DNA of 64,000 nucleotides from positions 1-64,000 of IMG/VR virus record IMGVR_UViG_3300032116_011488. One strand, given 5' to 3'. Of the stretch, positions 21,008-64,000 are shown piece after piece; position 1 is the stretch's first letter, and every line of letters begins with the position of its first letter. The translations under genes and the position numbers were made by a program. The stretch is from an uncultured virus (IMG/VR IMGVR_UViG_3300032116_011488) (Duplodnaviria > Heunggongvirae > Uroviricota > Caudoviricetes). The notes beneath the pieces were generated by a model. The model had not been told where the DNA came from, searched no databases, and saw only the letters and a program-made list of their open reading frames with translations.

Positions 21008-24000
21008 ATGGCAAATGAATTTATAGCCAGAAAGGGACTGGTTGTCCCTACTGGTAGTATAATAGTTTCATCTGGTTCGGTTACCGCAAATGATTTCTTC
21101 GGAACTGCAAGTCGAGCAGTTACCGCATCATTTGCGTTAAACGCAGCAGGTTCAGGATTCCCCTTCAGTGGTAGTGCAGTCATCACCGGGTCACTTAATG
21201 TAACCCAGGCGGTGACTGCATCGTTTTTTAAGGGTGACGGGTCACAAATTACAGGATTAAATACTTTAAGTAGTTCAGTAAATATTGATACACATACTTT
21301 CCAAGGTGATGGCTCTACCTCAAACTTTGTATTATCTCAAAGTTATGAACTGTCCTCATTATTTGTTTCTGTCGATGGATTATCGCAAACAAGTATCACA
21401 GACTATAGTATATCAACAAACATTCTTTCATTTGTAGAAGCACCGCCTTCACAATCAAGTATATTAGTTAGAGCCTTAATAAATGTAACCCAAGGTGCTA
21501 CGGGTTCATTTAGTGGTTCATTTCAAGGTGTAATTACAAGTGCAAGTTATGCAGAAACCGCTAGTTTTGCACTAACCCCATCAGGAACTTCTGGTAGTTC
21601 GGGAACGTCGGGTACATCGGGTAGTTCTGGAAGTACAGGCACCTCGGGTTCATCAGGTAGCACAGGAACTTCGGGTAGTTCCGGTTCAACAGGAACGTCT
21701 GGTTCATCTGGATCAAGTGGTATAGATGGTACTTCAGGAACATCAGGTTCATCAGGAACCTCTGGTAGTTCTGGTTCTACGGGAACCTCAGGTAGCTCGG
21801 GAAGTACAGGAACGTCTGGTAGTAGTGGTAGCACGGGTACCTCTGGTAGCTCGGGTTCAACCGGTACATCGGGTAGTTCAGGCACATCTGGTACTTCTGG
21901 TTCAAGTGGGACTGCTGGTTCTTCTGGAACAAGTGGTACGCTTACATTAACGGGTACCACAGATAATGGATTGATTACTCTCAATGGTTCAGCTCCAAAT
22001 GCAACCGTAGAAAGTAATCTTACCTTTGATGGTAATTCGTTAGTAGTTACAGGAGCAATCACAGCAAGTACTATACGAGTTAATGGTACTGCATCATTAC
22101 GATATTTAGAAACACAATTTGTAACCGCTTCAGTTATCTATGAAAGTGGTTCTACTAAGTTTGGTGACAGCTTTGATGATGTACATCAACGCACTGGTTC
22201 ACTAGAAATTACTGGCTCACTTGTAATAAACGGAACTTCGTATACCGCAGCAACTTCTGGAACATCAGGTACTGCAGGAAGCGCGGGCACATCAGGAAGT
22301 AGTGGTACTTCTGGAACATCTGGTTCATCAGGCAGTACCGGAACCTCAGGCAGTTCAGGAACATCAGGCAGTTCTGGTTCTTCAGGAACAACAGGAACTA
22401 GTGGAAGTAGTGGAACTTCGGGAGAAAATGGAAGTAGCGGAACCTCTGGTAGTTCGGGCACAACAGGAACTAGTGGTAGTGCAGGAACTTCAGGTTCTTC
22501 CGGTAGTTCGGGTACTTCAGGAAGCGCCGGTACATCAGGTACCGCTGGTAGTAGCGGTAGTACGGGAACCTCTGGAAGCGCAGGAACAGCTGGTAGTAGT
22601 GGAACAAGTGGTTCTTCTGGGTCAACGGGCACCTCAGGGTCAAGCGGTTCAACTGGAACTTCTGGTAGTAGCGGCTCAACAGGAACATCCGGTAGTAGCG
22701 GTAGTACAGGAACTTCAGGTTCATCCGGATCAACAGGTTCATCTGGAACCAGTGGAAGTTCGGGAAGTACTGGTACAAGCGGATCAGCAGGAACAAGTGG
22801 TACTACCGGTAGCTCAGGAACATCAGGTACATTAACGCTCACAGGCACCACTGATAATGGATTAATTACATTAAATGGAACCGCACCAAACGCAACCGTA
22901 GAAAGCAACTTAACATTTGACGGCAGTACCTTAACAGTGGTTGGTAATGAAGTTATATCCGGTTCCACTACAATTACAGGTAACCTCACAGTTCTTGGGT
23001 CATCATCAATTGGATATCTTACCCAAAGTCAATTAAATATCGGTACCAATTTAATCACAGTTAATGCACTCAATCCTGAATTCCGTTTTGGAGGATTAGC
23101 TGTTATTGATTCAGGATCATCACCAAAAGTTAGTGGTTCGTTATTATTTGATTCCATTAATGACCAATGGATATTCATTCATCAACAAGTAGCAGGGGCA
23201 GGTACTACATCATCCGTATTATTAATGGGCCCGCAAACCTTTAATGATGTTGGGAACGAAACGAATTTAAGTACAAATAGAATTCCAAAGAGTAATAACT
23301 CAGAACATCTCTCAGACTCCATCATTACGGATAATGGGTCGCAAATAACTGTTAGTGGGTCGGTATCTGCATCCTCATTTACAAGTTCTATTTCAAACGG
23401 AGTTGGCTTCTTTGGCACCGCATCTTATGCATTAACTCCTGCGGGAACTGCGGGTAGTAGTGGAACATCTGGTAGCTCTGGCACATCAGGTTCATCAGGT
23501 AGTACAGGAACCTCTGGTAGCAGTGGTAGTGCGGGAACCTCTGGCTCGTCTGGAAGTACGGGAACATCAGGAAGCTCAGGAACAACAGGTACTTCTGGAA
23601 GTTCGGGTACATCTGGAGCAGGGGGAAGTTCTGGAACCAGTGGAACAGCTGGTAGTTCGGGAACTACTGGAACTAGTGGCAGCGCAGGAACTTCTGGTTC
23701 GGCAGGAACTAGTGGTAGCGCAGGTACATCTGGAACCGCAGGTAGTTCTGGTACTTCTGGAGCAAATGGTTCATCTGGCACTTCTGGCTCATCAGGAAGT
23801 AGTGGAACTACGGGAACCAGCGGTAGTTCGGGTACTTCTGGAGCAAACGGTAGTTCCGGTACCTCTGGTAGTTCAGGAACATCAGGCAGTTCTGGTACGT
23901 CGGGCTCATCAGGAAGTAGTGGAACTACGGGAACCAGTGGTAGTTCAGGCTCCACAGGAACAAGCGGTTCTTCTGGTAGTACAGGTACATCTGGAAGTAG

Positions 24001-25867
24001 CGGTAGTACTGGAACATCTGGATCTTCTGGAACAGCTGGTAGTTCTGGTACTTCTGGGGCAGGAACCATTAGTGGCGGAGCAGCCAACAGAGTTGCATTC
24101 TACTCAGGAGAAACATCACTCACAGGAAGTGCAAATCTTACCTATGATGGTAATTCACTAGTAGTTACTGGTCCTCTTACTGCAAGTGCTTTAAGAGTTA
24201 ATGGTACAGCATCAATTAGATATTTAGAAACACAATTCGTAACATCATCTATTATCTTTGAATCTGGTTCTACAAAATTTGGTGATAGTTTTGATGATGT
24301 TCACCAAAGAACTGGTTCGCTAGCAATTACCGGTTCGTTAACTATAAATGGTACCTCGTATACAGCAGCAACTTCTGGAACATCGGGTACTTCTGGTAGC
24401 GCAGGTACATCAGGCACCAGCGGTAGTTCAGGTACCTCTGGTAGTTCTGGTTCTACGGGAACAAGCGGTTCATCAGGTACATCCGGATCATCTGGCACAT
24501 CAGGTAGCTCAGGATCTACAGGTACCTCAGGCTCATCTGGAACCACTGGTACATCAGGTTCTTCTGGAAGCACTGGTTCATCGGGTACCTCGGGTTCTTC
24601 TGGAACTACGGGCACATCTGGAAGTTCTGGTACCAGTGGCTCTTCAGGAAGTTCTGGTACAACCGGGTCTAGTGGTACCACGGGAAGTAGTGGTACTTCG
24701 GGTACATTAACATTAACTGGTACTAAAGATAATGGTTTAATTACCTTAAACGGGTCTGCCCCAAACGCCTCGGTCGAAAGTAATCTAACCTTTGATGGAA
24801 ATTTATTAACCGCTATCGGTAGTGGTAATTATCAAGCAGCAATTAGTGGAAGTACTGCTGCAGCATATACACAATTGTATATCAACGGTACTGGTCGTGC
24901 TTATGGCATTGGTGTTGGTAACGCAAGTGAAACTACATACGGTGTAGCAAACGAATTCTTCCTATTTGACCACAATGCAGCAGCAATGCGATTGGCAGTT
25001 GATATCAATGGTAACATTGGTGTCGGTACAACCAGTCCAGTAAACAGATTACAAATTGCGGGTAATGTCTCAGCGTCATCATATACCAGTTCTATTTCTA
25101 ACGCAGTAGGATTCTTTGGTACCAGTAGTGTAGCAGTATCTTCGTCACATGCAACCACCGCATCATTCGCACTAAATGCTGGTGGAGCTGGTTTCCCATT
25201 CAGTGGTAGTGCAGTTATTACGGGTTCATTGTATGTATCGGGTAGTAATATCTCTGGGTCATTTGTTGGCGATGGTAGTGGATTAACCAATGTAAACGCC
25301 GCACTGAATGTAATTGAATCTTCATTTGTTGGAGATGGTACCACCACATCATATTCACTGGGAGCTAGTTATCCAGCAAAATCATTAATTGTTACAGTGG
25401 ATGGATTAAGATTTAATGCTCCAGACGATTTCACTATGTCTGGAAACAATGTAGTATTTACCTCAGCACCACCATCTTCATCAACAATATTCGTTTCGGC
25501 GCTAATAAACACCGCAACAAATGTTACGGGGTCATTTAGTGGGTCATTCTTTGGTAATATTGCTAGTGCAAGTTTCGCAACTAGTGCGTCATATGTACAA
25601 CCAAGCGGGTTACCATCTGGTGTAGTCTCAGCTTCTTCACAAATTAGTATAGTGGCTGATAACCATGCATTAGTGGGGGACGGGACCACTACTATATACA
25701 CACTATCCCAATCGTATTCGCCGGCAATACTAACGGTGTCGATTGATGGATTGGTAAATACATTGACGGAAGATTATACAGTATCTACGAATCAACTCAC
25801 ATTCGTTTCCGCACCTCCGTCCTCGTCAAATATCTTGGTAAAAGGTATTAGAATAGCACTAATATAG
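21008..25867 (+). CDS. Large modular fibre protein with Ser/Thr-rich collagen-like (Gly-X-Y) blocks
   Basis: 1619 aa. Four (GTS/GSS)n blocks separated by repeated beta modules, plus three GDG...VSVDG...APP domains. Confidence 0.8.
21580..21940 (+). repeat. Gly-X-Y (GTS/GSS) coding repeat, block 1
   Basis: Imperfect 9-bp periodicity encoding GTSGSSGST. Boundaries are approximate. Confidence 0.85.
22250..22830 (+). repeat. Gly-X-Y coding repeat, block 2
   Basis: Same triplet repeat. Boundaries are approximate. Confidence 0.85.
23440..24065 (+). repeat. Gly-X-Y coding repeat, block 3
   Basis: Same triplet repeat. Boundaries are approximate. Confidence 0.85.
24370..24705 (+). repeat. Gly-X-Y coding repeat, block 4
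   Basis: Same triplet repeat. Boundaries are approximate. Confidence 0.85.
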
Positions 25868-25937
25868 AGGTAAAAAAATGGTTTTATTAGAGGTTTCTTT
25901 ATATTTATATCAGATAACTCATTTTTAGAGATTATAA

Positions 25938-28139
25938 ATGGCGATAACTAGACTTACCGGTGTATTGATTAAGAGCGGAAGTATTCCTACACATGCTTTA
26001 AGTGGTGGGGTAGTTTCTAGTTCGGCGCAGATTACCAGTTTACTACCCGCGGGCGCGGTTAGTAGTTCTGCACAAATCAATACTGGTTCATTTACTGGCT
26101 CTTTTACTGGTTCACTATTTGGCACCGCGAGTTATGCAGACTTTGCATTAACTCCCGCAGGTACTGCTGGTAGTTCGGGTACATCTGGTTCTTCTGGAAC
26201 CAGTGGCTCATCGGGTACAGCAGGAAGTAGTGGAAGTACAGGTACCAGTGGAACATCAGGTAGTTCTGGAACAGCCGGTAGTAGTGGAACCTCAGGATCA
26301 TCTGGTACAACAGGCTCTTCAGGAAGTACAGGTACATCAGGAAGTAGCGGTTCTACTGGCACGAGCGGCTCATCAGGTTCTACCGGAACATCTGGTAGTA
26401 GCGGAACTTCTGGTTCTTCGGGTACCAGTGGAAGTTCTGGAAGCACTGGCACAAGCGGGTCATCTGGAACCGCAGGAAGTAGTGGAACAGCCGGTAGTTC
26501 AGGTACTAGTGGAACACTCACTCTTACAGGCACCACCGACAACGGATTAATCACACTTAATGGCTCTGCACCAAACGCAACCGTAGAAAGCAACTTAACA
26601 TTTGACGGAAGTACCTTACGAGTTACGGGGTCCGCAATTATTACTAGTAACTTGACGGTACTCGGTACATCTTCTATTAGTTTTGTTTCTCAAAGTACCT
26701 TAGATATTGGTACCAATGTTATTACCGTTAATACATTATCTCCTGGTACAAGATTCGGTGGTCTATCGGTAATTGACTCTGGTTCATCACCAAAAGTAAG
26801 TGGTTCAATATTCTTTGATTCTCTCAAGGACGAATGGATATTCATTCATCAACAAGCAGCAGGTGCAGGAGTTACCTCATCTGTATTTATGATGGGCCCA
26901 CAAACATTTGATAGTGTTGGTAATGAACTTACTTTAACTACAAATAGAATTCCAAAGAGTCAAAATGCAGAACATCTTAGTGATTCTATTATCACTGATA
27001 ATGGGTCACAAATTACTGTCGCAGGTACCGTATCAGCTTCCTCATTCACAAGTTCGATTGTAAATGGCGTTGGATTCTTTGGTACCGCATCATTCGCATT
27101 AACTCCAGCAGGTACAGCAGGTTCCTCTGGAACATCTGGAACCGCAGGAAGTAGTGGAACCGCTGGCTCATCGGGTACAGGCGGCAGTTCTGGTACCACG
27201 GGTACATCTGGTAGTAGTGGAACAGCGGGAACATCTGGTAGTTCAGGAACATCTGGTGCAGCAGGTACATCAGGTAGTTCGGGAACCAGTGGTAGTTCAG
27301 GAACATCTGGTTCTTCTGGAACTACAGGTACATCAGGTAGTTCGGGAACAGCCGGAACCGGCGGTAGTTCTGGTACATCAGGAGCAAACGGAGCAACAGG
27401 AGCAACGGGTGCGGCAGGAACCAGTGGTAGTTCTGGTACAGCAGGTACTTCTGGCGCTGGAACTATTAGTGGTGGTTCCGCTGACAGAGTAGCAATATTC
27501 TCTGGAGCTACAACACTCACAAGTAACACAGGACTAACATATAGTTCACCAAGACTTACTGTATCTGGTGACAGTCCAAATATTTACTTAAACTCTGGTA
27601 ATGACGATTCCAGAATATATTTCACGGGTCTAGATAGATATATCCAAGGTTCAGCTGGCTCGGCCTTAAAATTCATCACACAAGATGGTCAACGCGCCCA
27701 TATGGATTCATTTGGTGTGTATGTTAATGCGGCACTTGGTGTGGGTTCTCAACCAACTACGGGATGGACTGGTGGTGAAATCCGCGCAACTAATGAAATT
27801 ACCGCATACGCATCGGATGCACGATTAAAGAATTTTCATGGAACTATTCAAGATGCGGTCAAGAAAGTATTATCAATTAATGGGTACTACTTCACAGAAA
27901 ACGAAGTGGCTAAGTCACTAGGATTCAATAAAGATGCAATGCAAGTCGGTGTCAGTGCACAAGAAATACAAGAAATACTTCCAGAAGTCGTTGCACCAGC
28001 TCCTGTTAATAATGAATACCTAACCGTGCGTTACGAACGGCTTACTGCATTATTAATTGAAGCAATTAAAGAACAACAAGGCACTATTGACAAATTACAA
28101 GAAAGAATTACGATTCTTGAAACAAATAATAAAGGTTAA
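25938..28139 (+). CDS. Fibre protein with Gly-X-Y blocks and C-terminal peptidase S74 intramolecular chaperone
   Basis: Two GTS/GSS blocks. C-terminus SDARLKN...[15 protein letters not shown]...[18 protein letters not shown]. Confidence 0.85.
26158..26515 (+). repeat. Gly-X-Y coding repeat, block 5
   Basis: Same triplet repeat. Boundaries are approximate. Confidence 0.85.
27108..27462 (+). repeat. Gly-X-Y coding repeat, block 6
   Basis: Same triplet repeat, including GANGATGATGAA. Boundaries are approximate. Confidence 0.85.
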
Positions 28140-28337: not shown

Positions 28338-28366
28338 TTGACAAGTTTAGTAGTATAATATATATT
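28338..28366 (+). promoter_or_regulatory. Sigma70-like promoter at start of the modification island
   Basis: TTGACA-17 nt-TATATT, overlapping a TATTTA motif. Confidence 0.65.
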
Positions 28367-28398: not shown

Positions 28399-28857
28399 AT
28401 GAGTGAAATAACATTCGAAACATTATTGGCAGCAGTAAATACTAACCCATCGGAATACGAAGAAAAGTATGTCCGATGGGTTTCTATTGGGTATGACAAA
28501 AAAGTTTTGGCAGAACTATTGTATGAATTACAATATCTGAAAGAGAAAGACGAATGGCCAGAACGAATTAAATTTTTAGAAGGTATTCTCGCCCAATATA
28601 ATCCACAACATTTATTGAATTTATTAAACGGTGAAACGCAAACGACACGATTTGCGTTAATTGAAAAGTGGTCACGTCAAGGGGCTATGGAAATACTCAT
28701 CTTTGATAAGTACAGTATCGATACATTAAATACTGTCACACAGTTTCCATTGGCAGATTATCAACTCTTTGTCAAACGAGTACAAGAAATTGTCACTATG
28801 ATTCGTGAAATCACCAGCCAAGCAGCAACATTAGCATCCGGAGTCGCCGGGCTATGA
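28399..28857 (+). CDS. Hypothetical protein
   Basis: 152-aa ORF with SD AGGGG. ATGA overlap with the next gene. Confidence 0.7.
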   Translation: MSEITFETLLAAVNTNPSEYEEKYVRWVSIGYDKKVLAELLYELQYLKEKDEWPERIKFLEGILAQYNPQHLLNLLNGETQTTRFALIEKWSRQGAMEILIFDKYSIDTLNTVTQFPLADYQLFVKRVQEIVTMIREITSQAATLASGVAGL

Positions 28858-36536: not shown

Positions 36537-36565
36537 TTGACATATTTACAAAAAAGTATTATAAT
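36537..36565 (+). promoter_or_regulatory. Consensus sigma70 promoter
   Basis: TTGACA (36537-36542), 17 nt, TATAAT (36560-36565). SD AAGGAGG downstream. Confidence 0.8.
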
Positions 36566-37376: not shown

Positions 37377-37377
37377 A

Positions 37378-51850: not shown

Positions 51851-51851
51851 T

Positions 51852-55568: not shown

Positions 55569-56290
55569 AGAAAAAATTATTAATAGGAGGATGTTCCTTC
55601 TCACAGTATCAAGGCCCTCCAACAGAAAGTCGTAAACCAAAATGGAAGCCGTGGACGGATTTTTTGATGGACGAATTTGAAGAAAAATTTAAAATCATAA
55701 ACCGTGCGCAGAGTTCATTTGGCCAAGGTATGATTGCGCAATCTATTGTCGAAGAATTAATAAGATACAATTTTGAAGTTGATTATGTAATAATACAATG
55801 GTCAGCTATAGGTAGGTCTTATTCATTGAATAAAAAAGATTTCATCGATAGAGTAGTTCAGCATGGAGAATTACAATTCGCACCACATATGGAGGAGTAC
55901 GTTACTGGTAAGCCAGAAGGGCAGGTAACAGGTAACAATCCTCTTATGGATGTGATAAATGAAACTTCTTCACATTTTTATACAGCATCTCTAATAAAAA
56001 TATTGATGACGAAGGCACTATTGGAAAACAAAAAGATTCCATACATAATGTTCTGGGGATGGCAGCAAATTACTACGGAAATTGAATACGAAAATAAAAA
56101 GATAATAGATTCAATTTATGATGAAAATTTTTGGAGATTTAATGATAATGGTGGAATGAACGAGTACATAGTATCTAATTTAGGAAAAGAGATAGGATTG
56201 GTGGGTAAAGGTGATTTTCATCCATCTACCACTGGGCAAAAGTTTTTTTATGATAATATAGTTAAGTCTTGGAAGTTTTTATGGGAGTAA
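55565..56290 (+). CDS. SGNH/GDSL-like protein
   Basis: IGGCSFS, NRAQSSFGQ, IQWS, DFHPSTTG. Confidence 0.6.
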   Translation: MKKKLLIGGCSFSQYQGPPTESRKPKWKPWTDFLMDEFEEKFKIINRAQSSFGQGMIAQSIVEELIRYNFEVDYVIIQWSAIGRSYSLNKKDFIDRVVQHGELQFAPHMEEYVTGKPEGQVTGNNPLMDVINETSSHFYTASLIKILMTKALLENKKIPYIMFWGWQQITTEIEYENKKIIDSIYDENFWRFNDNGGMNEYIVSNLGKEIGLVGKGDFHPSTTGQKFFYDNIVKSWKFLWE

Positions 56291-56490
56291 TAGAAACTAA
56301 GAAAAGAACTATGTTTAAAACTATTAGTTGGAGATTGGTTGCGATATTAAATTCATTTTTAATTTTAACTATGAACCTAACTACAAACAATTTACTCAAT
56401 GCGATATACATGAATATTACTGGGTTTTTTGTTTTCTATTTTTTTGAAAGAGTTTGGGCCAATATACAATATGGGAGATACATAGAGTGA
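56281..56490 (+). CDS. DUF2061-like small membrane protein
   Basis: ETKKRTMFKTISWR...YFFERVWANIQYG. Confidence 0.7.
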   Translation: MGVIETKKRTMFKTISWRLVAILNSFLILTMNLTTNNLLNAIYMNITGFFVFYFFERVWANIQYGRYIE

Positions 56491-57686
56491 TATATGTTTT
56501 GGATATAGATGGTTGGCCGTTCGATTCACAGTGGCCCAGTAATAAGGAACCATTTCAATATGTAACATTAGAATACTTTATTAAAGATTTTTTGTTTAAA
56601 GGGAAACAAATTGCGGTACATAAAATAGAAGGCAATAACAAAATTTCCCCAGAGGCTGTAGATAAAATACTGACAGAAAATACAGATATTAAAGTATTTG
56701 CCTGTAATTTAGATGCATTTGAAGACAAGCAGTCATTATTATTATATGATGAACAACTTTGTCAAAAATATCCGAACGTATTTTTTATATTTTTTTACCA
56801 CGAATTAGATTTTACATTTTTAGTAGACTCGACTAGCAAAGGTATAAAAAATATAAGTTATGTCGTTAATTCGTTCACTACAAATGATTATGAAGAACTT
56901 AATAAAAAGATATTTCCATACTATGTTATAAATTCCTACCTACAGAAAAATTATGAATCGATGTACAGAATGTACCATCCGAACTATAATCTAAGAAAAA
57001 TTAAGAAATTTAATTTTCTAAATGGCATACATAAACCGCATAGATTAGCTGCGTACGAATTGATAAAAACGCATAATATGTTAGATGATGGTTTCTTTTC
57101 TTATTTAGATTACACAAAATTTTTAAAGAATGACCAACACAAAGAAACAACAGCTAACTGGTTGGACATAACCATAGAAGAACTAGAAACCAGATTATCT
57201 AACCTTGAAGTTCCTTATTTGTTAGAAACATACGAACCAAAGAACCAACCTGGGGTATTTGCTGCACCGTTCTTAATTCCCTTTATATATTCTTGGCAAA
57301 GTTATATTTCGATTACATCTGAAACAAATTATATAGAACGTACAAACGTGGTATCCTTATCAGAAAAATCATTTAAAGCATTCGCTGGGTTTAATATTCC
57401 ATTGATATATGGACAACCCAATCTAGTTGAATATTTAAAAAAGTTAGGATTTGATATGTTCGATGATTTATTTGATAACACTGTTGTAAACAGCAAAGCA
57501 GAAACATTAAGTAAACTGGATAGAAATTTACAAGTTATTAAAAATATGTCGTTAGAAGAATTACACAATTTCTATGTAAAAAATTACAATAGGGTACAAA
57601 ATAATTTTTATAATCTAATTTACAAAATAAAAGATAGACACTTTAACCAAATTCAACAAAATGTTAATGAAATATTCAATAAGTGA
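56487..57686 (+). CDS. GT10-like putative glycosyltransferase, paralog
   Basis: GTG start in a GTGA overlap. FNFLNG..KPHR...SITSET...LSEKSFK..PLIYG..LKKLGFDMFDD. Confidence 0.55.
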   Translation: MIYVLDIDGWPFDSQWPSNKEPFQYVTLEYFIKDFLFKGKQIAVHKIEGNNKISPEAVDKILTENTDIKVFACNLDAFEDKQSLLLYDEQLCQKYPNVFFIFFYHELDFTFLVDSTSKGIKNISYVVNSFTTNDYEELNKKIFPYYVINSYLQKNYESMYRMYHPNYNLRKIKKFNFLNGIHKPHRLAAYELIKTHNMLDDGFFSYLDYTKFLKNDQHKETTANWLDITIEELETRLSNLEVPYLLETYEPKNQPGVFAAPFLIPFIYSWQSYISITSETNYIERTNVVSLSEKSFKAFAGFNIPLIYGQPNLVEYLKKLGFDMFDDLFDNTVVNSKAETLSKLDRNLQVIKNMSLEELHNFYVKNYNRVQNNFYNLIYKIKDRHFNQIQQNVNEIFNK

Positions 57687-58293
57687 TTCGTGGGACTGGG
57701 TTACACATTTTGAAAATACTATAGCAGAGTATTGTGGGTCACGGTATGCAGTTGCGTGTGATTCCAACACCAATGCAATACGACTTGTATTACACTATCT
57801 GGGTATACAAAATCAACGCATACATATTCCGGCGAGAACATATGTGTCTGTACCGAACCAAATTATACTATCAGGAAATACACCAGTATTCGTAGATATT
57901 GATTGGCAAGGGTTGTACAATATTGGAAATACTTCTATTGTTGATGCGGCTACCGCATTTTATAAGGGAATGTACCAAGAAAAGTATACCATATTATCTT
58001 TTCATCTTAAGAAAATTTTGAACATCGGAACGGGTGGTATGATTCTGACCAACGATAAAGAGTTTGAACAATGGGCACGCCCTATGATTTATGATGGTAG
58101 ACATAAGAACAAAATGTACGTTGATGACCAATTTGAGTGTGTAGGTTGGCATATGTATATGACTCCAGAACAAGCCAAGCGTGGATTAGAAATATTTCAT
58201 TCCGACAAAATTAAAGATTGGAACTCTCCGTGTGGTGGAAGTTGGTTATACAAAGATTTACGAGAACAAAATGTTTTTAAGAGTTACGTATGA
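57667..58293 (+). CDS. DegT/DnrJ/EryC1/StrS PLP aminotransferase (short form)
   Basis: FENTIAEYCGSRYAVACDSNTNA, IPARTYVSV, VDAA, SFHLKK (PLP Lys), GGMILT. Confidence 0.8.
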   Translation: MKYSISDSWDWVTHFENTIAEYCGSRYAVACDSNTNAIRLVLHYLGIQNQRIHIPARTYVSVPNQIILSGNTPVFVDIDWQGLYNIGNTSIVDAATAFYKGMYQEKYTILSFHLKKILNIGTGGMILTNDKEFEQWARPMIYDGRHKNKMYVDDQFECVGWHMYMTPEQAKRGLEIFHSDKIKDWNSPCGGSWLYKDLREQNVFKSYV

Positions 58294-58637
58294 CAAATTT
58301 AGTTTATTTTTTCTATTCTCTGGGATTATTTATTTTAGGTTCATTTGGTCACTGGTATATTATGTATTGGCAATTTAAGAATCCTAATTGGATTAAAATG
58401 CCGACGCCATACATACTAGCAGCAGCGTCCGCATTTTTCTGGATTTCCGCATCTCATTACGGGGTTAAAGCATTCAACGGTGAGATGTGGTCAAACAGAT
58501 TTTTGTTTTTCGTTACTGGTATAATGGTAGCAGCAATACTTTATCCTTATCATTTTAATCAACCATTTACAGGAAAGACGTTTGTACAACTACTTCTTTC
58601 ACTAACCATAATTCTTGTAAGTTTACTTTGGAAATAA
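58290..58637 (+). CDS. Small integral membrane protein
   Basis: 115 aa with about four hydrophobic segments. Confidence 0.65.
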   Translation: MTNLVYFFYSLGLFILGSFGHWYIMYWQFKNPNWIKMPTPYILAAASAFFWISASHYGVKAFNGEMWSNRFLFFVTGIMVAAILYPYHFNQPFTGKTFVQLLLSLTIILVSLLWK

Positions 58638-58638: not shown

Positions 58639-59343
58639 ATGAAACAAAAACTATTTCATTATGGGTGTTCGTTCACAGAAAACATTCGTTCATTTAAACT
58701 ACATAACTTGTTTACGGACAAGTATGATTATCATAATCACGGTTTAGCTAGTTCCGGTAACGGATTGATTTTTGATACTTTTAAGAAAACCGCAGAATCA
58801 GATTCTATAGCTATTTTACAGTGGTCATCTCTTACTCGTCCTCGGGATGAAAATTATAAAATATTAGAAACGTCTGATAATCCATTGTATGATTATTTGG
58901 AAGAATGGTATGGTACCTTATCCGAAGCAAGAGAATTTTCCAATAAAAATAATATAAAACTAGTACAGTATATTGGATGGGCTGAGTGGAAGGACTCTGA
59001 GTTAAACGATTATCATAGAAATAAACTTCAATCGTTTGGTATACATTGGTTTAAGTCTAAAAAGCAGTGGGACATAATTGCATCAAATTGTTTTCAATTT
59101 GAGGATCCTTACGAATGGAGTTCTCCTCCCAGACAGTTACCAGATGGAGAATATTTCCTTTGGTCAGATATAGAATGGGGCGGCATGAGTGAATGGATTA
59201 GATCAAATATAGAGATACACGATAGATATAGGGGATGGACGGATGACACAGTTGCGGGAACCACATATTATGACCCGCACCCATCGGAGTATGCTAGTAT
59301 TCAGTTTATAAAGGAATTTTTATTAAAAACATTGGAAATGTAA
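58639..59343 (+). CDS. SGNH/GDSL-like protein
   Basis: HYGCSFT, NHGLASSGN, LQWS, DPHPS. Confidence 0.6.
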   Translation: MKQKLFHYGCSFTENIRSFKLHNLFTDKYDYHNHGLASSGNGLIFDTFKKTAESDSIAILQWSSLTRPRDENYKILETSDNPLYDYLEEWYGTLSEAREFSNKNNIKLVQYIGWAEWKDSELNDYHRNKLQSFGIHWFKSKKQWDIIASNCFQFEDPYEWSSPPRQLPDGEYFLWSDIEWGGMSEWIRSNIEIHDRYRGWTDDTVAGTTYYDPHPSEYASIQFIKEFLLKTLEM

Positions 59344-59344
59344 G

Positions 59345-60142
59345 ATGAAAACTATACTTTCTATTGGTTGTTCTTATGCTCTTGATTTAAATCAACACTA
59401 TAAAAAAACTAGTACGCTTAGATTTTCATATGATGGTGCCTCGATAGAAACAATACTGGAAATGGTTAAGTATTTAGAAAGTACGGAAGAGCACTCAACT
59501 GAAAATTGGGTTGTGGGTATAACTCAAATAGGTAGATTGAATAAACAAATTCCAAAAGGATTAGAATGGCAATCTCCAACATTAATAAAACCTAGAAATT
59601 TATTTTTCGACAAAGACCATAAATGGTGTTTTTTCTCGGAAGGACAAGAAGAAAAAGAAATGTCCTCTAATTTTTCATCAGAGTGGTGGAAAACCGAACA
59701 TATCTCACACGTTTCCAAGCCAATAGAAGAACACATTAGAAATTATCTGAATGCTATTGTTGAAATACAAAATATTTTGAAAGATAAAAAATTTGTAATG
59801 TTTTTGATGAATAATACATTAGATGGTTGGGTTTATAAAAAAGATGGTAGATTATCACATATATATTCTGAATATAAAGGTTTCGACATACCAGAATTTA
59901 ATGACACATTCACATTAGAAAAGATATGTCCCAGAGAGTGGTCTAATATAGATTTTAGTAAATTTTGTTTGTATGAACACATGCAAAGTAAGTTTGGTGG
60001 GCTTGATGAATACACTATACACAAGTATGGAGTAAATCATTTTGGTACGTATCAATCGGCGGATAAAAATGTATTTGGACAACATCCTATACACGAAGCA
60101 CAATGGAATTTTTTCAATGAGGTCATAAAACACAGATTATGA
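59345..60142 (+). CDS. SGNH/GDSL-like protein
   Basis: SIGCSYA, GASI, GITQIGR, GQHPI. Confidence 0.55.
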   Translation: MKTILSIGCSYALDLNQHYKKTSTLRFSYDGASIETILEMVKYLESTEEHSTENWVVGITQIGRLNKQIPKGLEWQSPTLIKPRNLFFDKDHKWCFFSEGQEEKEMSSNFSSEWWKTEHISHVSKPIEEHIRNYLNAIVEIQNILKDKKFVMFLMNNTLDGWVYKKDGRLSHIYSEYKGFDIPEFNDTFTLEKICPREWSNIDFSKFCLYEHMQSKFGGLDEYTIHKYGVNHFGTYQSADKNVFGQHPIHEAQWNFFNEVIKHRL

Positions 60143-60924
60143 TAAATAAAAAAACAGAATGGGATTTTAATAAATCCGAATATGGATTTGGCAGAACTAA
60201 AATTGATAATTTCTTGGACGAAAACACCGTTCGGGCTTTATATGAAGAATGTGTAAACGCACCAAAGGGCGGATGGACTGTGTTTACTCGCGCGGGTTCT
60301 CGTATGGAAGAGTTTAACGACTTGATTTCTTTACCGACCGCACACAGGATTACATATGATATTATGCACTCCGGTGAGTTCTTATATGAACTAGAACAAA
60401 TGACTGGTATCGTTGGATTACTACCAGACCCACATTTAGTTGGTTCGGGATATTCGATTATCAGAAATGGTAACACACTTGGGTGCCATTACGACTTTAA
60501 CTGGAATGACCGTATCCGATTACATAGAAAATTGACATCATTGTTGTACATTACCCCAGACTGGCAAGACGAATGGGGTGGACATATTCAATATTATGAT
60601 GATAATATAGATGTTAATCCGAACGCAAAACTAATTGAATCGGTGGCACCAAGATTTAATAGATTTGTTATCAACGAGAATATTAAGCACGGACCATATC
60701 ACAGAGTAAGTGCGGTAAATGCACCAGATGATATTGGTCGGTGTGCTATCAGGTTCTTCTATTATATCAGTACTTCTGATCCAGATAAAGACAATCCACC
60801 ACACAGAAGTACTTATAAATCCAACGAATATTCACATCACAAGCTATATGAAGAAGAAACTTGGGATGGGCATTTCGTAGGAAATGGCGGGGAAGACTAC
60901 GGATATAACCACACGAATAAATAA
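60139..60924 (+). CDS. 2OG-Fe(II) oxygenase
   Basis: PDPHLVGSG, CHYDFN (HxD), LLYITPDWQDEWGG, PRFNR, YHRV...R. Confidence 0.85.
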   Translation: MINKKTEWDFNKSEYGFGRTKIDNFLDENTVRALYEECVNAPKGGWTVFTRAGSRMEEFNDLISLPTAHRITYDIMHSGEFLYELEQMTGIVGLLPDPHLVGSGYSIIRNGNTLGCHYDFNWNDRIRLHRKLTSLLYITPDWQDEWGGHIQYYDDNIDVNPNAKLIESVAPRFNRFVINENIKHGPYHRVSAVNAPDDIGRCAIRFFYYISTSDPDKDNPPHRSTYKSNEYSHHKLYEEETWDGHFVGNGGEDYGYNHTNK

Positions 60925-61571
60925 TGTATTGTGTTTTCCACTTACCGAGAACAGGCTCAAGATATTTACACAGTTTAATTAATAGTAGCTTGTCATATCT
61001 TGACCCAAGACACATAGGTACACATTTAGAACCATTCAATCCTGAGTTCAACACTTTAAATGATATTGAACATAAGTTTGAAGAGTTCACTAATAACGAA
61101 CCACCGACAACCGTGAAAATGGTTATCAATCATTATCCGTGGTTAGCGGATAAATTCATACAGCACCAAAAATACACTACGATTTTTATAAAACCTTTAA
61201 ATTATAGAAAACGTTTATTGAAAGCACTGGTAGAAAAACATTTCAGAACATACAGTAACGGAACGAATAGAAAGGATGTAAGAGAGCCATTTGTGGGTAA
61301 ATTAAAGTTTTCTGATGAATTAATAGAAGAACGTTTTTTTCATTACAAACTTCATATGGAATATGAAACACGATGCGACTATGTTTTTTATGATGAGTAT
61401 TTATTCACGCATACAACTGACGTATTAACTAAATTGAATTTACCATTAGTTACTACAAGATATAAACGGGTGGCACCATACTATTCAGATGAAGATATGC
61501 TAGAAAATATTGATGAGTTCAACAAACAATACGATAAACTTAGTGTAAAAATTTTTGGATATGTTGTATGA
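60924..61571 (+). CDS. Sulfotransferase-like protein
   Basis: N-terminal LPRTGS (PAPS 5'-PSB-like loop), EPFN. Confidence 0.6.
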   Translation: MYCVFHLPRTGSRYLHSLINSSLSYLDPRHIGTHLEPFNPEFNTLNDIEHKFEEFTNNEPPTTVKMVINHYPWLADKFIQHQKYTTIFIKPLNYRKRLLKALVEKHFRTYSNGTNRKDVREPFVGKLKFSDELIEERFFHYKLHMEYETRCDYVFYDEYLFTHTTDVLTKLNLPLVTTRYKRVAPYYSDEDMLENIDEFNKQYDKLSVKIFGYVV

Positions 61572-62149
61572 TAACAAATGAATTGTTAAAAATAGAACGT
61601 ATCAAACCTACTGATATGGTAGGTATAATGTTGTCTGGTGGAATGGATAGTGCATTATTATTATATCTACTAGCTAAAAATTTAACTAATCAAATAATTC
61701 CGTTCACTGTTCCAAAAACAGATGGTGCGAAACATTACGTCGTACCGATTGTTACGTGGGTAAATAATAAACTAAATAAAAACATACCAGAACCACAGTT
61801 GATAGGAAATCCATCAGTATATCATTCTCAAATAATAAACCATTCTTTAAAGGAAATAGAAGAAATGTACGATGTTTTATACTTTGCAGGAAATTCATAT
61901 CCAGAAAATATATTGCCTGGCGGACCCAATCGTACTAAAAGAACAAATTCCAAACATTTACAACCATTTTTTGAGTTATATAAAACAGATATCTTACGAG
62001 GATATATAACTTATGATATAATGGATTTAATATTACTAACTCATACGTGCACAGAATTAGAATATGGTAGATGTAATGTCTGTTGGCAATGCAAGGAAAG
62101 AGAATGGGCCTTCAAAGAACTAGATATATTAGACAGAGGGATACAATGA
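61568..62149 (+). CDS. QueC-like PP-loop ATPase
   Basis: MLSGGMDS, QPF..LYK, THTC...CNVCWQCKER. Confidence 0.7.
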   Translation: MITNELLKIERIKPTDMVGIMLSGGMDSALLLYLLAKNLTNQIIPFTVPKTDGAKHYVVPIVTWVNNKLNKNIPEPQLIGNPSVYHSQIINHSLKEIEEMYDVLYFAGNSYPENILPGGPNRTKRTNSKHLQPFFELYKTDILRGYITYDIMDLILLTHTCTELEYGRCNVCWQCKEREWAFKELDILDRGIQ

Positions 62150-62165
62150 TAATAGAGATATTAAT

Positions 62166-62801
62166 ATGTATTGTATAGTTGCATTACCTAAAACTGCTTC
62201 TACACTTACATGGCACATAATTGATGACGCACTGAAACGAAATAATTTAAACTGTGATTACGGAGATATAGAACCATTTAATCCATATAATAAAAATTAT
62301 ACACCTAGATTAGAAAACCAAGAAATTATTTATCAACGTTTGTTGATTAGTAAACCGTTACCATTGATAAAATTATTAACTAACTATAACTACAATATAT
62401 TTAATTGGTTTAATAATTCACCGTATCAATTGATTTTTTTAAAACCAAAAAACATTAGAAAACAAATACTTGGTTCATTAATAGGCAACGTGACAAAAAA
62501 TTATTTTGGTATAAGAGAAGAACGATTGGAGTTGAAAGGTAAGTTAAAATTTGAAAGATATAAAATAGAACAAAAAGTGTTCGCATACAAAAAACATATG
62601 AGACTAGAACGATTCTGTAAATACAGTTTTTACGATACAGAAATCATAACCAATCCAAATTATTTATTAGAAACTTTAAAGTTACACAAAACAGAAACAG
62701 TATATAATAATTACACACTACCAATTATCAGCGATGATGATATGTTAGAAGATATTGATGAGTTTAATAAACTATATGAGGAGTGTATTAATACATTATG
62801 A
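62166..62801 (+). CDS. Sulfotransferase-like protein, paralog of 60924-61571
   Basis: MYC...LPKTAS, EPFNP, GKLKF and DMLE.IDEFNK.Y are shared with the 60924 ORF. Confidence 0.6.
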   Translation: MYCIVALPKTASTLTWHIIDDALKRNNLNCDYGDIEPFNPYNKNYTPRLENQEIIYQRLLISKPLPLIKLLTNYNYNIFNWFNNSPYQLIFLKPKNIRKQILGSLIGNVTKNYFGIREERLELKGKLKFERYKIEQKVFAYKKHMRLERFCKYSFYDTEIITNPNYLLETLKLHKTETVYNNYTLPIISDDDMLEDIDEFNKLYEECINTL

Positions 62802-63019
62802 CAGTTCATATAAAAAGACATATTGCAAAAGCAATTACATATAGAATAGTAGGTACCTTGACAACATTTATTATTTCGTATATATTTACGGGTAGTATAT
62901 CTCTATCATCCGCGATAGGGGCCACAGAATTAATAGTCAAACCCGTCAATTATTTTTTACACGAACGGGCGTGGTATAAGTGGATTAAATTTGGTCTTAC
63001 TAATAAGAACGAGGAATAA
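62798..63019 (+). CDS. DUF2061-like small membrane protein
   Basis: RHIAKAITYRIVGT...YFLHERAW. Confidence 0.7.
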   Translation: MTVHIKRHIAKAITYRIVGTLTTFIISYIFTGSISLSSAIGATELIVKPVNYFLHERAWYKWIKFGLTNKNEE

Positions 63020-63022: not shown

Positions 63023-63787
63023 ATGAGAATTTTGGTTATGGGATTGCCTGGGTCTGGAAAGACTACATTATCTAAGGTATTGGCGGAAAAGTTAGATGCC
63101 GCTTACTTCAATGCAGACGAAGTACGGAAACAGTTCAACGATTGGGACTTTTCTGAAACTGGTCGTAAACGTCAAGCATATCGGATGCGGGAACTTTGTG
63201 ATATGTCAGAAACGTATCATACGGTGGCAGATTTTGTCTGTCCCACAGAAGAAACCCGTGAACTCTTCTTACCAGATTTTATTGTGTTTATGAATACAAT
63301 AGATGCTGGGAGATTTGAGGATACCAATAGAGTGTTTGAGGTACCCGAAAAGGTAAATGTATTGGTGAATGGATGGATAGACACAAATACACAAGCAGAT
63401 ATTATCATTGAACAAATCAAGAAAGTGGACGTACATTTTGGTTGGCAGAATCCTACGGGACTGATGATTGGTCGGTTCCAACCATTCCACGATGGGCACT
63501 TGAAGTTATTTGAGACTATCTTGGAGAAGGAAGGTCAGGTACTTATTGCGGTCAGAGACACCTATAATACCGACGAAAAGAACCCATTCAATTATGTGGA
63601 GGTTATCGAAGGAATCCACAAGAAGCTGGAAAATAAGTACCGTGGAAAATACTATATAATGTCTGTCCCGAATATCACTGGGGTCTATTATGGTCGGGAT
63701 GTGGGATATAAAGTCGAGAAAATCAATCTGGACCCACAAACTGAATCGATTTCTGCTACCCAAATTCGGAAGGAAATGGGGAAGTAA
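63023..63787 (+). CDS. Adenylylsulfate kinase-like domain fused to an HxGH nucleotidyltransferase domain
   Basis: GLPGSGKT, NADEVR..DFSETGR, DFVCP, then IGRFQPFHDGH...ISATQIR. Confidence 0.75.
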   Translation: MRILVMGLPGSGKTTLSKVLAEKLDAAYFNADEVRKQFNDWDFSETGRKRQAYRMRELCDMSETYHTVADFVCPTEETRELFLPDFIVFMNTIDAGRFEDTNRVFEVPEKVNVLVNGWIDTNTQADIIIEQIKKVDVHFGWQNPTGLMIGRFQPFHDGHLKLFETILEKEGQVLIAVRDTYNTDEKNPFNYVEVIEGIHKKLENKYRGKYYIMSVPNITGVYYGRDVGYKVEKINLDPQTESISATQIRKEMGK

Positions 63788-63802
63788 ACGATATTTATTA
63801 GT

Positions 63803-64000
63803 ATGCAAGTAAATGTACCTGCGAATTGTGAAAGAATAAATGTTTTGTTTTCTGGAGGGGCAGATAGTTCACTATTGGCGTATCTGTTGATAAAGCAAAA
63901 TACTGATATACCGATAGTTCTTCATTTTATGAAACATAGGCTGGATTTTCAGAGTCCACACATGACTAACTGCCACAATTGGTTAGAACGACATTTTAAT
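63803..64000 (+). CDS. QueC-like PP-loop protein, 5' part (truncated by window edge)
   Basis: MQVNVPANCERINVLFSGGADSSLLAYLL... is open to the end of the window. TATTTAT motif at 63792. Confidence 0.65.
   Translation, partial: MQVNVPANCERINVLFSGGADSSLLAYLLIKQNTDIPIVLHFMKHRLDFQSPHMTNCHNWLERHFN

Follow-up and report, generated by a model that had tools for sequence, protein, structure and literature searches.

We analysed a window of 64,000 nucleotides (IMG/VR record IMGVR_UViG_3300032116_011488, positions 1 to 64,000), the opening stretch of a viral contig of 73,316 bp from an uncultured lake phage, and found that its two tail-fibre genes are followed on the same strand by an island of approximately 40 kb whose gene content marks it as a real, phage-encoded pathway for sugar synthesis, transfer and decoration. 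The region is best explained as a lineage-conserved, separately promoted phage glycan factory placed behind a long tail-fibre gene. Among the possible acceptors of the predicted glycan, a virion protein of the phage itself, the adjacent fibre first, is tentatively the single most likely one. We prefer this acceptor because the junction between fibre and island is conserved, a glycosyltransferase resembling the viral enzyme A197 sits at that junction, the remaining transferases are virus-restricted, and the sugar chemistry appears to be conserved throughout the lineage. A first-pass annotation of the window had proposed that the phage glycosylates its own collagen-like fibres or its capsid, and had named the host surface and the phage DNA as other possible acceptors; we report below how the separate parts of that proposal fared, both other acceptors staying in contention.

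Both genes in front of the island are true fibre genes, since the first encodes a T7-type tail-fibre N-terminal domain and the second an S74-type intramolecular chaperone domain at its C-terminus. Fibre 1 (21008..25867, + strand; 1619 amino acids (aa)) was matched by Pfam Collagen (E 4e-83), Phage_T7_tail (E 2.9e-9) and many PHROG tail-fibre families, and contains 413 Ser, 255 Thr and 319 Gly residues, with Ser and Thr together making up 41% of the protein. Its four uninterrupted Gly-X-Y blocks (40, 64, 69 and 37 triplets) hold 254 Ser and 133 Thr at the X and Y positions, or 387 Ser/Thr, with some Ala and almost nothing else. Fibre 2 (25938..28139, + strand; 733 aa; Pfam Collagen E 3e-30, Peptidase_S74 E 2.7e-7) has two such blocks of 40 and 39 triplets with 84 Ser and 50 Thr (134 Ser/Thr), and is 77% identical to part of fibre 1. 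The earlier statement that two fibres carry hundreds of Ser/Thr residues in Gly-X-Y blocks is confirmed by these counts and by the Pfam matches. Neither Pro nor Lys was found at the X/Y positions of the collagen-like blocks in either fibre.

The island holds 39 open reading frames (ORFs) of at least 80 aa at 28399-63787, plus small ORFs, all on the + strand as is every gene of the window, in agreement with the approximately 40 same-strand genes first counted. Sugar-type genes run past the end of the window to about contig position 67991, and an SNF2 helicase at 71302 bounds the region. About half of the island ORFs had no family match in Pfam and NCBIfam scans, and a 24-kb stretch of the island had no megablast match among deposited phages. 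Upstream of the fibres lies a T4-type virion module (3422-20943) with portal (PF07230), prohead protease, Gp23-type capsid protein, sheath and tube genes; the top matches of the capsid protein among 50,697 deposited phages were Flavobacterium phage immuto, Microcystis phage Mel-JY01 and one 484-kb uncultured phage, at 51-54% identity. AT content is higher in the island than in the virion module and fibres (GC 0.28-0.39 at 28000-64000 vs 0.35-0.47 at 1-28000). The 'moraphage' lineage was considered as a possible home for the window phage; in the portion of PMC12619734 consulted it is described as lying outside the T4 group, and its identity with the window-phage lineage was not established.

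The position of the island behind a fibre gene is shared by its relatives. An alignment of the GT-B-type glycosyltransferases described below retrieved 31 viral loci, most of which share an 11-kb core cassette in fixed order: twitch-domain radical S-adenosylmethionine (radical-SAM) protein, GT-B, short-chain dehydrogenase/reductase (SDR), RmlC-like protein, E1-alpha, GT-B, SDR, SDR, E1-beta, GT-B. Among the records compared, G001 is an 80-kb viral contig 100% identical to the window phage at an offset of 16,729 bases; G001-G005 are fragments (13-33% complete); G006 (288,673 bp with terminal repeats) and G007 (275,970 bp) are complete; and G008 is 65% complete. In 9 of the 9 records with both sides visible (G001-G008 and the close relative L062), the sugar genes are closely preceded, on their own strand, by a long fibre gene with a chaperone domain. 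The claim that fibres directly precede the island therefore stands as a broad tie between fibre and sugar genes, and falls as a tie specific to collagen-like repeats. The junction is kept whole in G005, in which a 1630-aa non-collagen fibre is followed by a promoter-like site, a homologue of the first island gene at 28399 (39% identity), and a GT-A-type enzyme resembling A197 (51% identity to the one at 28854); after further genes come a GT2-like gene, a pair of GT7-lectin fusions and finally the cassette. The fibres of G006-G008 measure 1667-1845 aa, and behind them stand one or two Ser/Thr-rich proteins, a pair of conserved unknowns, a GT2-like gene, GT7-lectin fusions and the cassette. The S74-type C-terminal domain of fibre 2 is kept in the fibres of G005-G008: three fibre genes encode it in each of G006, G007 and G008, and one such gene was found in the G005 fragment. 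In G006 and G007 the cassette precedes the capsid gene by 15-17 kb, in the window phage it is downstream of the virion module, and the adjacency to a fibre is kept despite this changed gene order and a capsid identity of only 57-59%. The GT7-lectin fusion pairs of the relatives (L026:1432-4298, L020:923-4220, L226:12257-15093), which join a beta-4-galactosyltransferase-like GT-A domain to a ConA-like lectin domain (Laminin_G_3) and stand between fibre and cassette, have no counterpart in the window-phage island.

The sugar genes of the cassette were all recognised in Pfam or NCBIfam scans, as were the three epimerases, RmlC, DegT and thiamine diphosphate (ThDP) E1 pair that had been named for nucleotide-sugar synthesis. 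The cassette opens with an N-terminal twitch-domain radical-SAM protein (31315..32727, + strand; NCBIfam NF033640 E 1.2e-95). An SDR-type nucleotide-sugar dehydratase/epimerase (start 37327; Epimerase E 3e-31) and an RmlC-like 3,5-epimerase (start 38282; dTDP_sugar_isom E 4e-33; NCBIfam rmlC E 3.5e-33, under the cut-off) occupy 37327..38899 (+), and two further SDR nucleotide-sugar enzymes, which are GDP-fucose-synthase/GalE-like (starts 44027 and 45029; Pfam Epimerase E 1e-38 and 9.5e-45), occupy 44027..46012 (+). An E1-alpha-like ThDP-binding subunit (39599..40231, +; 210 aa; Pfam E1_dh E 4.9e-16) and an E1-beta-like pyrimidine-binding subunit (45964..46524, +; 186 aa; Transket_pyr E 1.3e-6; NCBIfam PDH E1 beta E 4e-12, under the cut-off) would make up a two-subunit enzyme. 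Between the window phage and G006, the sugar and tailoring enzymes are 59-88% identical, the portal, capsid, sheath and tube proteins 45-60%, and the GT-B paralogues 30-47%; the two SDRs at 44027..46012 are 86-89% identical in relatives whose capsid protein is at 57-59%. Because the sugar enzymes exceed the virion core in this way, the sugar chemistry appears to be conserved across the lineage. The higher conservation of sugar than of virion genes in G006 also points to exchange among related phages or to very strong constraint.

The putative transferases comprise one GT-A-type and five GT-B-type proteins. The GT-A-type glycosyltransferase-like protein (28854..29552, +; 232 aa) was matched by PDB entry 2c0n (A197 of Sulfolobus turreted icosahedral virus (STIV); E 6.9e-5), by phrog_1574 (E 1.9e-20) and other glycosyltransferase PHROGs, and by Pfam Anp1 (E 5.8e-6, under the cut-off). 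Its former label, GT2-like, is retained as far as a glycosyltransferase is concerned, on weak GT-A matches, and is dropped as regards GT2, the best solved relative being A197. In the part of PMC10551542 consulted, A197 is described as an essential GT-A enzyme of STIV, a virus with a glycosylated capsid protein, and its donor and acceptor as still undetermined.

The five GT-B paralogues, all on the + strand, are encoded at 32729..35538 (paralogues 1 and 2; starts 32729 and 34105; 459 and 477 aa), 42850..44052 (paralogue 3; 400 aa), 49739..51850 (paralogue 4, the C-terminal part of a fusion with an N-terminal SGNH-like domain) and 56454..57686 (paralogue 5; 410 aa). None of them had a significant Pfam match even at E ≤ 5, Glyco_transf_10 included, or an NCBIfam match, and a profile of all five searched against PDB sequences gave nothing meaningful. 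We computed an AlphaFold2 model of paralogue 3 from a 42-sequence alignment (predicted local distance difference test (pLDDT) score 91.9). Since every Foldseek match of this model at E ≤ 1e-3 was a GT-B glycosyltransferase (top match: the phage HY126 glycosyltransferase, E 2.2e-4), the five paralogues, four of them by paralogy, are assigned the GT-B fold of two Rossmann domains. An independent all-against-all alignment (VIA) gave Z scores of 11.1 for the T4 alpha- and beta-glucosyltransferases (AGT, BGT), 10.7 for an Actinobacillus glucosyltransferase and H. pylori alpha-1,3-fucosyltransferase, 10.4 for plant FUT13, 10.3 for human FUT9, for the exostosins EXT1/2 and for a chlorovirus glycosyltransferase, and 10.1 for Gtf3 of serine-rich-repeat glycosylation. 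GT10, T4 AGT/BGT, exostosin and chlorovirus enzymes lie within 1 Z unit and are tied, and the modelled fold is accordingly unable to separate protein, glycan and DNA acceptors. The description of the genes as five GT10-like enzymes is upheld for five paralogues with a GT-B fold and weakened for GT10, for which there is no profile match and a structural tie with the T4 enzymes; a GT10-like family is possible from the model. In the 42-sequence alignment E295 and K296 are invariant and S294 nearly so, which may correspond to the [ST]-E-K at the end of the GT10 C-terminal donor-binding motif.

The GT-B family is almost confined to viruses. Paralogue 3 has 274 metagenomic homologues at E ≤ 1e-3 in a large protein collection, all unnamed and without a Pfam domain; tblastn against the 50,697 deposited phages gave no match; and just 2 loci were found among one genome each of 185,579 prokaryotic species. 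One of these cellular loci (L207) is a 23-kb contig with 27% GC that was binned with a Pelagibacterales metagenome-assembled genome and carries the whole cassette in phage order on a single strand; it is most likely a co-binned phage fragment, and as a hint of the host it is at most weak. Restriction of the family to viruses (2 cellular loci, 31 viral) fits a virus-specific acceptor better than a host O-antigen. Two lines of evidence on the acceptor were considered and set aside. The only longer GT-B forms found were two metagenomic proteins (P0123 and P0124; 724-756 aa) with GT-B fused to SDR epimerase/dehydratase domains; being just two and both fused to SDR, they are uninformative as an acceptor clue. 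Charge as a test for DNA binding (GT-B paralogues pI 5.3-6.2; T4 a-gt pI 6.1, b-gt 9.05; pI, isoelectric point) was likewise uninformative, because T4 a-gt, a proven DNA enzyme, is itself acidic.

Decoration of the predicted glycan appears to involve an expansion of SGNH-like proteins. An acyl-transfer enzyme of SGNH type had been noted as a single gene; an SGNH-like type is supported, and the window in fact holds nine SGNH-like domains (starts 38899, 46526, 48804, the N-terminal half of 49739, 51831, 54612, 55544, 58639 and 59345), with a tenth gene beyond the window at contig position 67080. They were recognised in a motif alignment and lie, all on the + strand, at 38899..39609 (block I G-C-S and a C-terminal His), 46526..47395 (with a classical G-D-S block), 48804..49742, 51831..52565, 54612..56290 (two proteins) and 58639..60142 (two proteins), in addition to the fusion described above. 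In our reading of these family-less proteins, they open with a block-I-like G-[DC]-S and close with a His block; in a 20-sequence alignment G15 and H227 are invariant and S17 is present in at least 90%, the member at contig 67080 having Cys for Ser. None had a significant match to a curated profile: Lipase_GDSL reached E 0.16, and DUF6071 matched the 51831..52565 protein at E 2.3e-5 with 24.6 bits, under its 27-bit cut-off. An AlphaFold2 model of that protein (pLDDT 75.9) has the SGNH alpha/beta/alpha fold, all 50 of the 50 structural matches listed being SGNH/GDSL enzymes (Z 14.8-9.9), many of them carbohydrate esterases or O-acetyltransferases. Nine of ten weak matches of the SGNH profile to PDB sequences were also SGNH/GDSL enzymes (best E 0.084). 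The proteins are predicted to be cytoplasmic because the catalytic block stands at the very start and a signal peptide is lacking.

Signals for transcription separate the island from the structural genes. The strict sigma70-type pattern TTGACA-N17-TATAWT occurs three times in the window against 0.08 expected, always on the + strand, and 0 of 100 shuffles reach three. One promoter-like site (TTGACA-N17-TATATT, 28338..28366) lies in the gap before the first island gene; a perfect one (TTGACA-N17-TATAAT, 36537..36565; 12/12 matches) is intergenic and is kept before the homologous gene in G004; the third match (62858..62886) falls inside the DUF2061 ORF at 62798-63019. In G001-G005, the form of the pattern with an N16-18 spacer was found directly after the last fibre gene. 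By a post-hoc positional reading of TATTTAT boxes on the + strand, 6 of 9 in 1-28139 lie 15-37 nt before structural or fibre starts and 1 of 10 in the island does; overall, TATTTAT is not enriched (26 vs 33.6 expected). Since sigma70-type sites head the island whereas TATTTAT precedes structural genes, we infer that unmodified host polymerase transcribes the island as a separate unit, and not simply as a late one. The expectation of late expression is not supported, a conserved sigma70-type promoter-like site standing at the start of the island and not before the structural genes. The six TATTTAT boxes (5348, 11231, 13698, 16389, 18451 and 25902) form a candidate late-promoter element and are near the reverse complement of the T4 late consensus; that consensus itself (TATAAATA) was tried and showed no enrichment (9 matches vs 9.8 expected). 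The 259-bp gap that separates fibre 2 from the island contains an unannotated 58-aa ORF (28152-28328) with no Pfam family, which stops 10 nt before the TTGACA of the first promoter-like site.

We infer the following sugar chemistry, order of steps and acceptor. The core cassette (three SDR enzymes, the RmlC-like protein, the two-subunit ThDP E1 alpha/beta-like enzyme and the twitch-domain radical-SAM protein) would start from a host nucleotide-hexose and yield an unusual sugar, one that is probably branched and 6-deoxy. The A197-like GT-A enzyme and the five virus-specific GT-B enzymes would then assemble an oligosaccharide in the cytoplasm, which would be decorated by the nine or ten SGNH-like enzymes, a carbamoyltransferase, two sulfotransferase-like proteins, an amidinotransferase-fold protein and oxygenases. 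In the sub-clade of the window phage the fibre would have evolved (G-S/T-S/T)n blocks with potentially hundreds of O-glycosylation sites, and glycosylation might stabilise the proline-free triple helix. The full proposal, namely that an uncultured aquatic T4-like lineage with genomes of up to 289 kb has a virus-specific protein glycosylation system, with GT-B and SGNH-like families of its own and a branched-sugar cassette better conserved than the capsid protein, that coats the adjacent fibre in a much-modified glycan, and that the fibre of one sub-clade is a mucin-like collagen, is possible and on balance doubtful. Support for a virion-protein acceptor, beyond the intact G005 junction and the persistence of fibre adjacency, includes the fact that the contig ORFs showed no recognisable envelope enzyme for initiation, polymerisation or export.

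Several observations weigh against a virion-protein acceptor. The first concerns the collagen-like repeats. Matches to the G-S/T-S/T pattern number 124, 44, 57 and 32 in the fibres of G001-G004, and there are 0 collagen-profile and 0 repeat-pattern matches in the complete, cassette-bearing G006 and G007 and in G008, as also in the G005 fragment. Conversely, at least 157 viral stretches have eight GGN-WSN-WSN units in a row, and the 77 loci fetched represent 66 distinct contigs; in 61 of these a G-[STA]-[STA] repeat ORF was verified, with lengths reaching about 4900 aa; the island lies within 10 kb in just 1 of these 61 (the close relative L062), and three more have a single weak homologue, in a comparison limited to flanks of 10 kb, to contigs many of which are fragments, and to the island's own glycosyltransferase families. 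The proposed co-occurrence of GTS/GSS fibres with the island fails both ways, and a tie of collagen repeats to the island beyond one sub-clade is not supported. Secondly, about 25 homologues of island genes are spread across at least 8 loci in G006; because of this dispersal, the single island is read as a consolidation in the window sub-clade. Thirdly, the contrast between sigma70-type sites at the island start and TATTTAT before the structural and fibre genes disfavours purely late co-expression. The tie of the GT-B fold with T4 DNA glucosyltransferases and the three small membrane proteins inside the island count the same way. O-antigen glycosyltransferases also commonly lack membrane helices, which makes the absence of export genes weak evidence. 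The adjacency could be synteny passed on by descent, or a fibre may have co-evolved with enzymes that modify its receptor, and the glycan itself is predicted from sequence alone.

Remodelling of the host envelope is an unlikely but substantial alternative. In this case the enzymes would provide unusual nucleotide-sugars and act at the cytoplasmic face on host lipid-linked surface-glycan intermediates, host machinery would export the products, and the receptor of the fibre would be altered, blocking superinfection or the loss of progeny on cell debris. The three small membrane proteins are in its favour: two 73-aa predicted membrane proteins of family DUF2061 (56269..56490, +, Pfam E 1e-5; and 62798..63019, +, E 3.6e-20), and one of 115 aa with three or more hydrophobic segments (58290..58637, +), whose start overlaps the stop of the DegT-like gene and which matched no family at E ≤ 10. 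Size and topology of the last are, we presume, reminiscent of small lipid-linked-sugar flippases. Nevertheless, none of the three matched a flippase, polymerase or ABC family, and scans of the ORFs gave no Pfam or NCBIfam family of flippase, bactoprenol transferase, phosphoglycosyl transferase, polymerase, ligase or AT3 acyltransferase; the earlier remark that no Wzx/Wzy/ABC gene is recognisable was correct in this sense, with the small membrane proteins as an addition to it. As side observations, the two DUF2061 ORFs are paralogues lying inside seeming intergenic gaps, the second between a sulfotransferase-like and the kinase/nucleotidyltransferase gene, and the 115-aa protein has a 31% identical homologue in G006 at 34758-35099.

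Envelope remodelling draws further support from sigma70-type sites, which suit an unmodified host polymerase, from the rapid divergence of the GT-B paralogues (30-48% identity), as if they tracked variable host glycans, and from the nearest SGNH structures, which are surface-polymer carbohydrate esterases and O-acetyltransferases. The linkage to the fibre is explicable by fibre-receptor co-evolution. In cyanophage S-SM2, a sugar island of 20 kb includes GT11 and GT25 genes and an E1-type enzyme with 44% identity; a comparable island of fibre and sugar genes is interpreted as modification of the host O-chain in the sections seen of PMC7029224, and similar genes as cell-surface modification in those of PMC12801897. 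On the other side, the SGNH-like proteins lack a signal peptide and would be cytoplasmic, the GT-B and SGNH-like families lie outside the CAZy families of host O-antigen clusters and are nearly absent from cellular genomes, and the sugar enzymes are better conserved than the capsid across relatives that probably differ in host.

Hypermodification of the phage DNA is less probable still, yet to be taken seriously. On the model of T-even phages, RB69 and DLP3, cytosine would be replaced by a C5-hydroxylated or hydroxymethylated form, on which the GT-B enzymes would build a sugar chain as a shield against host nucleases. The best structural matches of the GT-B model include both T4 glucosyltransferases and, by Foldseek, the HY126 enzyme, and the family is virus-restricted as the T4 enzymes are; the fold match is, however, a statistical tie with GT10, exostosins, the chlorovirus enzyme and serine-rich-repeat glycosyltransferases. 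G006 and G007 each carry a normal ThyA-family gene and a divergent 232-aa homologue (L206:1195-1893; L205:1204-1902). The best solved relative of this homologue is the CMP 5-hydroxymethylase MilA (E 4e-6); it keeps the catalytic Cys and, in the alignment, has Asp where canonical thymidylate synthase has its cytosine-excluding Asn, presumably N177. It was found in 47 viral contigs (73-100% identity) and in 3 of 3 complete cassette-bearing relatives (G006, G007 and G009), and judged by this gene, phages of the G006/G007 type probably make C5-modified cytosine. The sigma70-type promoters would suit pre-late expression.

Published systems offer partial precedents for such a DNA glycan. HY126 DNA is described as carrying arabinosylated 5-hydroxycytosine (PMC13326640, consulted in part), and T4-like phages are reported to place mono- to trisaccharides on 5-hydroxymethyl- or 5-hydroxy-cytosine by means of a ThyA homologue, GT-B enzymes and phage-made nucleotide-sugars (10.1101/2023.12.21.572611; PMC13326640). 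In the parts of these sources available to us, DNA-sugar clusters share GT-B, HAD-type phosphatase and bifunctional kinase/nucleotidyltransferase types with the island (PMC13326640) and adjoin structural genes (10.1101/2023.12.21.572611); the DNA glycans described there are mono- to trisaccharides, against which six transferases and about 20 tailoring enzymes would be unprecedented. The ThyA-like gene of G006 and G007 is also at least 80 kb away from their cassette, the cassette SDR orthologue is lacking in 3 of 4 other near-complete genomes with that gene, and the conserved fibre adjacency is left unexplained. The absence of the ThyA-like gene from the window contig (73 kb) and from G001-G005 is uninformative, all of these being fragments.

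The weakest alternative, a soluble product (a free glycoconjugate or a modified nucleotide-sugar, such as an inhibitor, a signal or a storage compound) or several acceptors at once, is quite improbable: the dispersed G006 loci suggest separable sub-functions, the decoration set (carbamoyl, sulfo-like, acyl-type and amidino-fold) is like that of tailored small glycoconjugates, and SDR sugar enzymes are the sole fusion partners of the two longer GT-B forms, but family scans found no polyketide synthase, nonribosomal peptide synthetase, terpene synthase or other aglycone-forming enzyme and no exporter, and the conserved position behind a fibre gene would have no explanation.

The island, for which we continue to prefer a virion-protein acceptor, was compared with known systems. 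Sugar islands beside fibre genes are already known in aquatic T4-like phages: pelagimyophages and cyanomyophages are reported to carry a variable 'host recognition cluster' (HRC; mean 44.6 kb) in the structural region, with fibres, glycosyltransferases, lipopolysaccharide-type genes and radical-SAM cassettes (PMC7029224, as far as consulted). The window phage resembles these aquatic T4-like myophages in having a tens-of-kb island in or next to the structural module, with fibres (some with collagen repeats), glycosyltransferases, deoxy-sugar genes and radical-SAM proteins, and in its variability. It differs in not being a close relative (capsid 51-54% to Flavobacterium and Microcystis phages), in using virus-restricted GT-B enzymes without Pfam families in place of the GT8, GT11 and GT25 reported there, and in its nine or ten SGNH-like genes. 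The HRC is placed between VrlC and the neck protein gp14, neither of which was identified in the window contig; the island here follows sheath, tube and fibre genes. S-SM2 and P-TIM68 share a 44-46% identical ThDP E1-type enzyme (fused in S-SM2), epimerases, a kinase, a nucleotidyltransferase and fucosyltransferase-superfamily genes; they have no paralogues of the window GT-B family and no annotated SGNH expansion, and the S-SM2 island lies beside ribonucleotide reductase and tRNA genes, not fibres.

Mycobacteriophage systems use few transferases and host sugars, in contrast to the approximately 40-kb pathway with its own sugar synthesis in the window phage. They have in common phage glycosyltransferases near structural genes, and there glycans have been reported on virion proteins, namely capsid and tail tube (Freeman et al. 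2023, as summarised in PMC12619734), which here are predicted from genes alone. Mimivirus is described as having fibril-glycan clusters of 9-12 genes and a collagen-glycosylating enzyme, L230 (PMC9614988, in the part consulted). Giant viruses (Mimivirus and chloroviruses) are alike in virus-encoded, host-independent cytoplasmic nucleotide-sugar synthesis, transferases and tailoring enzymes, in fibre-like virion proteins and, from what is reported there, in glycosylated viral collagen-like proteins; they differ in having eukaryotic hosts and, as far as shown, share only general folds, and Mimivirus collagen is said to be glycosylated on hydroxylysine, whereas the blocks here lack Lys and Pro. 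T4, RB69, DLP3 and HY126, on the accounts seen, resemble the window phage in being T4-like, in GT-B enzymes that are structurally as close as any, in nucleotide-sugar supply genes and, through its relatives, in a cytosine-type ThyA homologue; the enzyme set here is far larger, and the ThyA-like gene is known from relatives and unlinked to the cassette. BclA of the Bacillus exosporium, likened by partial description, is a Gly-X-Thr-rich collagen-like filament whose O-linked oligosaccharides terminate in a tailored deoxy-sugar of an unusual kind; it belongs to bacterial spores, and glycosylation in the window phage is hypothetical.

What is new here is the enzyme families, the scale (the six transferases and approximately 20 tailoring enzymes), the conserved junction, and the experimental handle that the repeat fibres provide. 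Large sugar-gene islands by tail-fibre genes are common in abundant aquatic phages and have so far been interpreted as host-surface modification; this island is an unusually clean test case, with virus-restricted transferases, a deeply conserved fibre junction and an easily assayed repetitive peptide. If the fibre is the acceptor, environmental T4-like phages would join giant viruses and mycobacteriophages in encoding the glycosylation of their own virions, with consequences for host recognition, particle stability, and grazing or immune recognition. If the acceptor is DNA, the island would far exceed every known DNA glycan pathway in elaboration. In either case the GT-B family, the G-[DC]-S SGNH-like family and the minimal two-subunit ThDP sugar enzyme are targets for biochemistry.

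The remaining genes of the island, all on the + strand, are described in their order. The first (28399..28857; 152 aa) had no Pfam, PHROG or NCBIfam match; its homologue follows the fibre in G005, as noted above, and in L062 (90% identity). Two family-less genes (29542..31313; 369 and 221 aa) gave only non-significant PDB matches, and the methyltransferase label for the second (30648-31313) could not be verified, its PDB match (E 0.77) being non-significant. An amidinotransferase/arginine-deiminase-fold protein (35513..36532; Pfam ADI E 3.2e-5; phrog_25854 E 2.5e-27) keeps its amidino label as to fold, on a weak Pfam match. It is followed by a PhyH-type 2-oxoglutarate (2OG)/Fe(II) dioxygenase (36594..37376; Pfam PhyH E 3.3e-19). 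A mobile module at 40236..42863 encodes a radical-SAM protein (Radical_SAM E 1e-11), a HAD phosphatase of PNKP type (HAD_PNKP E 5e-20) and a HAD-associated domain protein, and its three genes are together present or together absent among relatives; look-alikes of the third protein (start 41862) in the atlas are domains fused to HAD hydrolases, RgpF, and bacterial capsule-synthesis and rhamnan proteins. A second copy of the twitch-domain radical-SAM protein lies at 47544..48797 (NCBIfam NF033640 E 1.6e-90).

A NodU/CmcH-type O-carbamoyltransferase (52562..54196; Carbam_trans_N E 2.6e-60, Carbam_trans_C E 3.8e-58) precedes a conserved 134-aa protein with no family match (54206..54610; 74% identical in G006, 81% in G005). 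The short DegT/LegC-type aminotransferase-like protein (57661..58293; 210 aa; Pfam DegT E 2.6e-24) has a 207-aa homologue in G006 at 75% identity, and is not regarded as a broken gene because a length of 207-210 aa is kept in the relative. A 2OG-Fe(II) oxygenase of a P4H-type family lies at 60139..60924 (2OG-FeII_Oxy_3 E 1.5e-12; 85% identical in G006); the carbamoyltransferase, radical-SAM and 2OG oxygenase labels of the first-pass annotation were all matched in the Pfam or NCBIfam scans. Two sulfotransferase-like paralogues (60924-61571 and 62166-62801; 34% identical to each other) flank a PP-loop ATPase (61568-62149; QueC/Asn_synthase PP-loop matches) at 60924..62801, the ATPase being one of two PP-loop proteins in the region overall. 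The paralogue pair resembles viral clusters in which 14-42% of members carry a Stf0 sulfotransferase domain (atlas score 0.96), so that the sulfo label stands as a language-model lead, from look-alike clusters that partly carry Stf0. The last gene of the window encodes a bifunctional P-loop kinase and nucleotidyltransferase (63023..63787; AAA_33, CTP_transf_like and weak APS_kinase matches; phrog_10255 kinase E 1.5e-59).

Beyond the window follow a PP-loop protein, a subtilase, a cytidylyltransferase (contig 65919-66344) and the tenth SGNH-like gene (67080-67991). The subtilase (499 aa; Peptidase_S8 E 1e-26) occupies contig 64393-65892, between the PP-loop and cytidylyltransferase genes. In the complete relatives, ORFs of 1502-1735 aa stand directly after the cassette (L026:16027-20535 in G006; L020:15276-20483 in G007) and carry cytidylyltransferase-like, HD and poly(A)-polymerase-head (CCA-adding type) domains. 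G006 also holds a 487-aa low-complexity ORF (234836-236299) with a Pro-rich stretch, a run of approximately 25 Ser and (E-T-K)n repeats.

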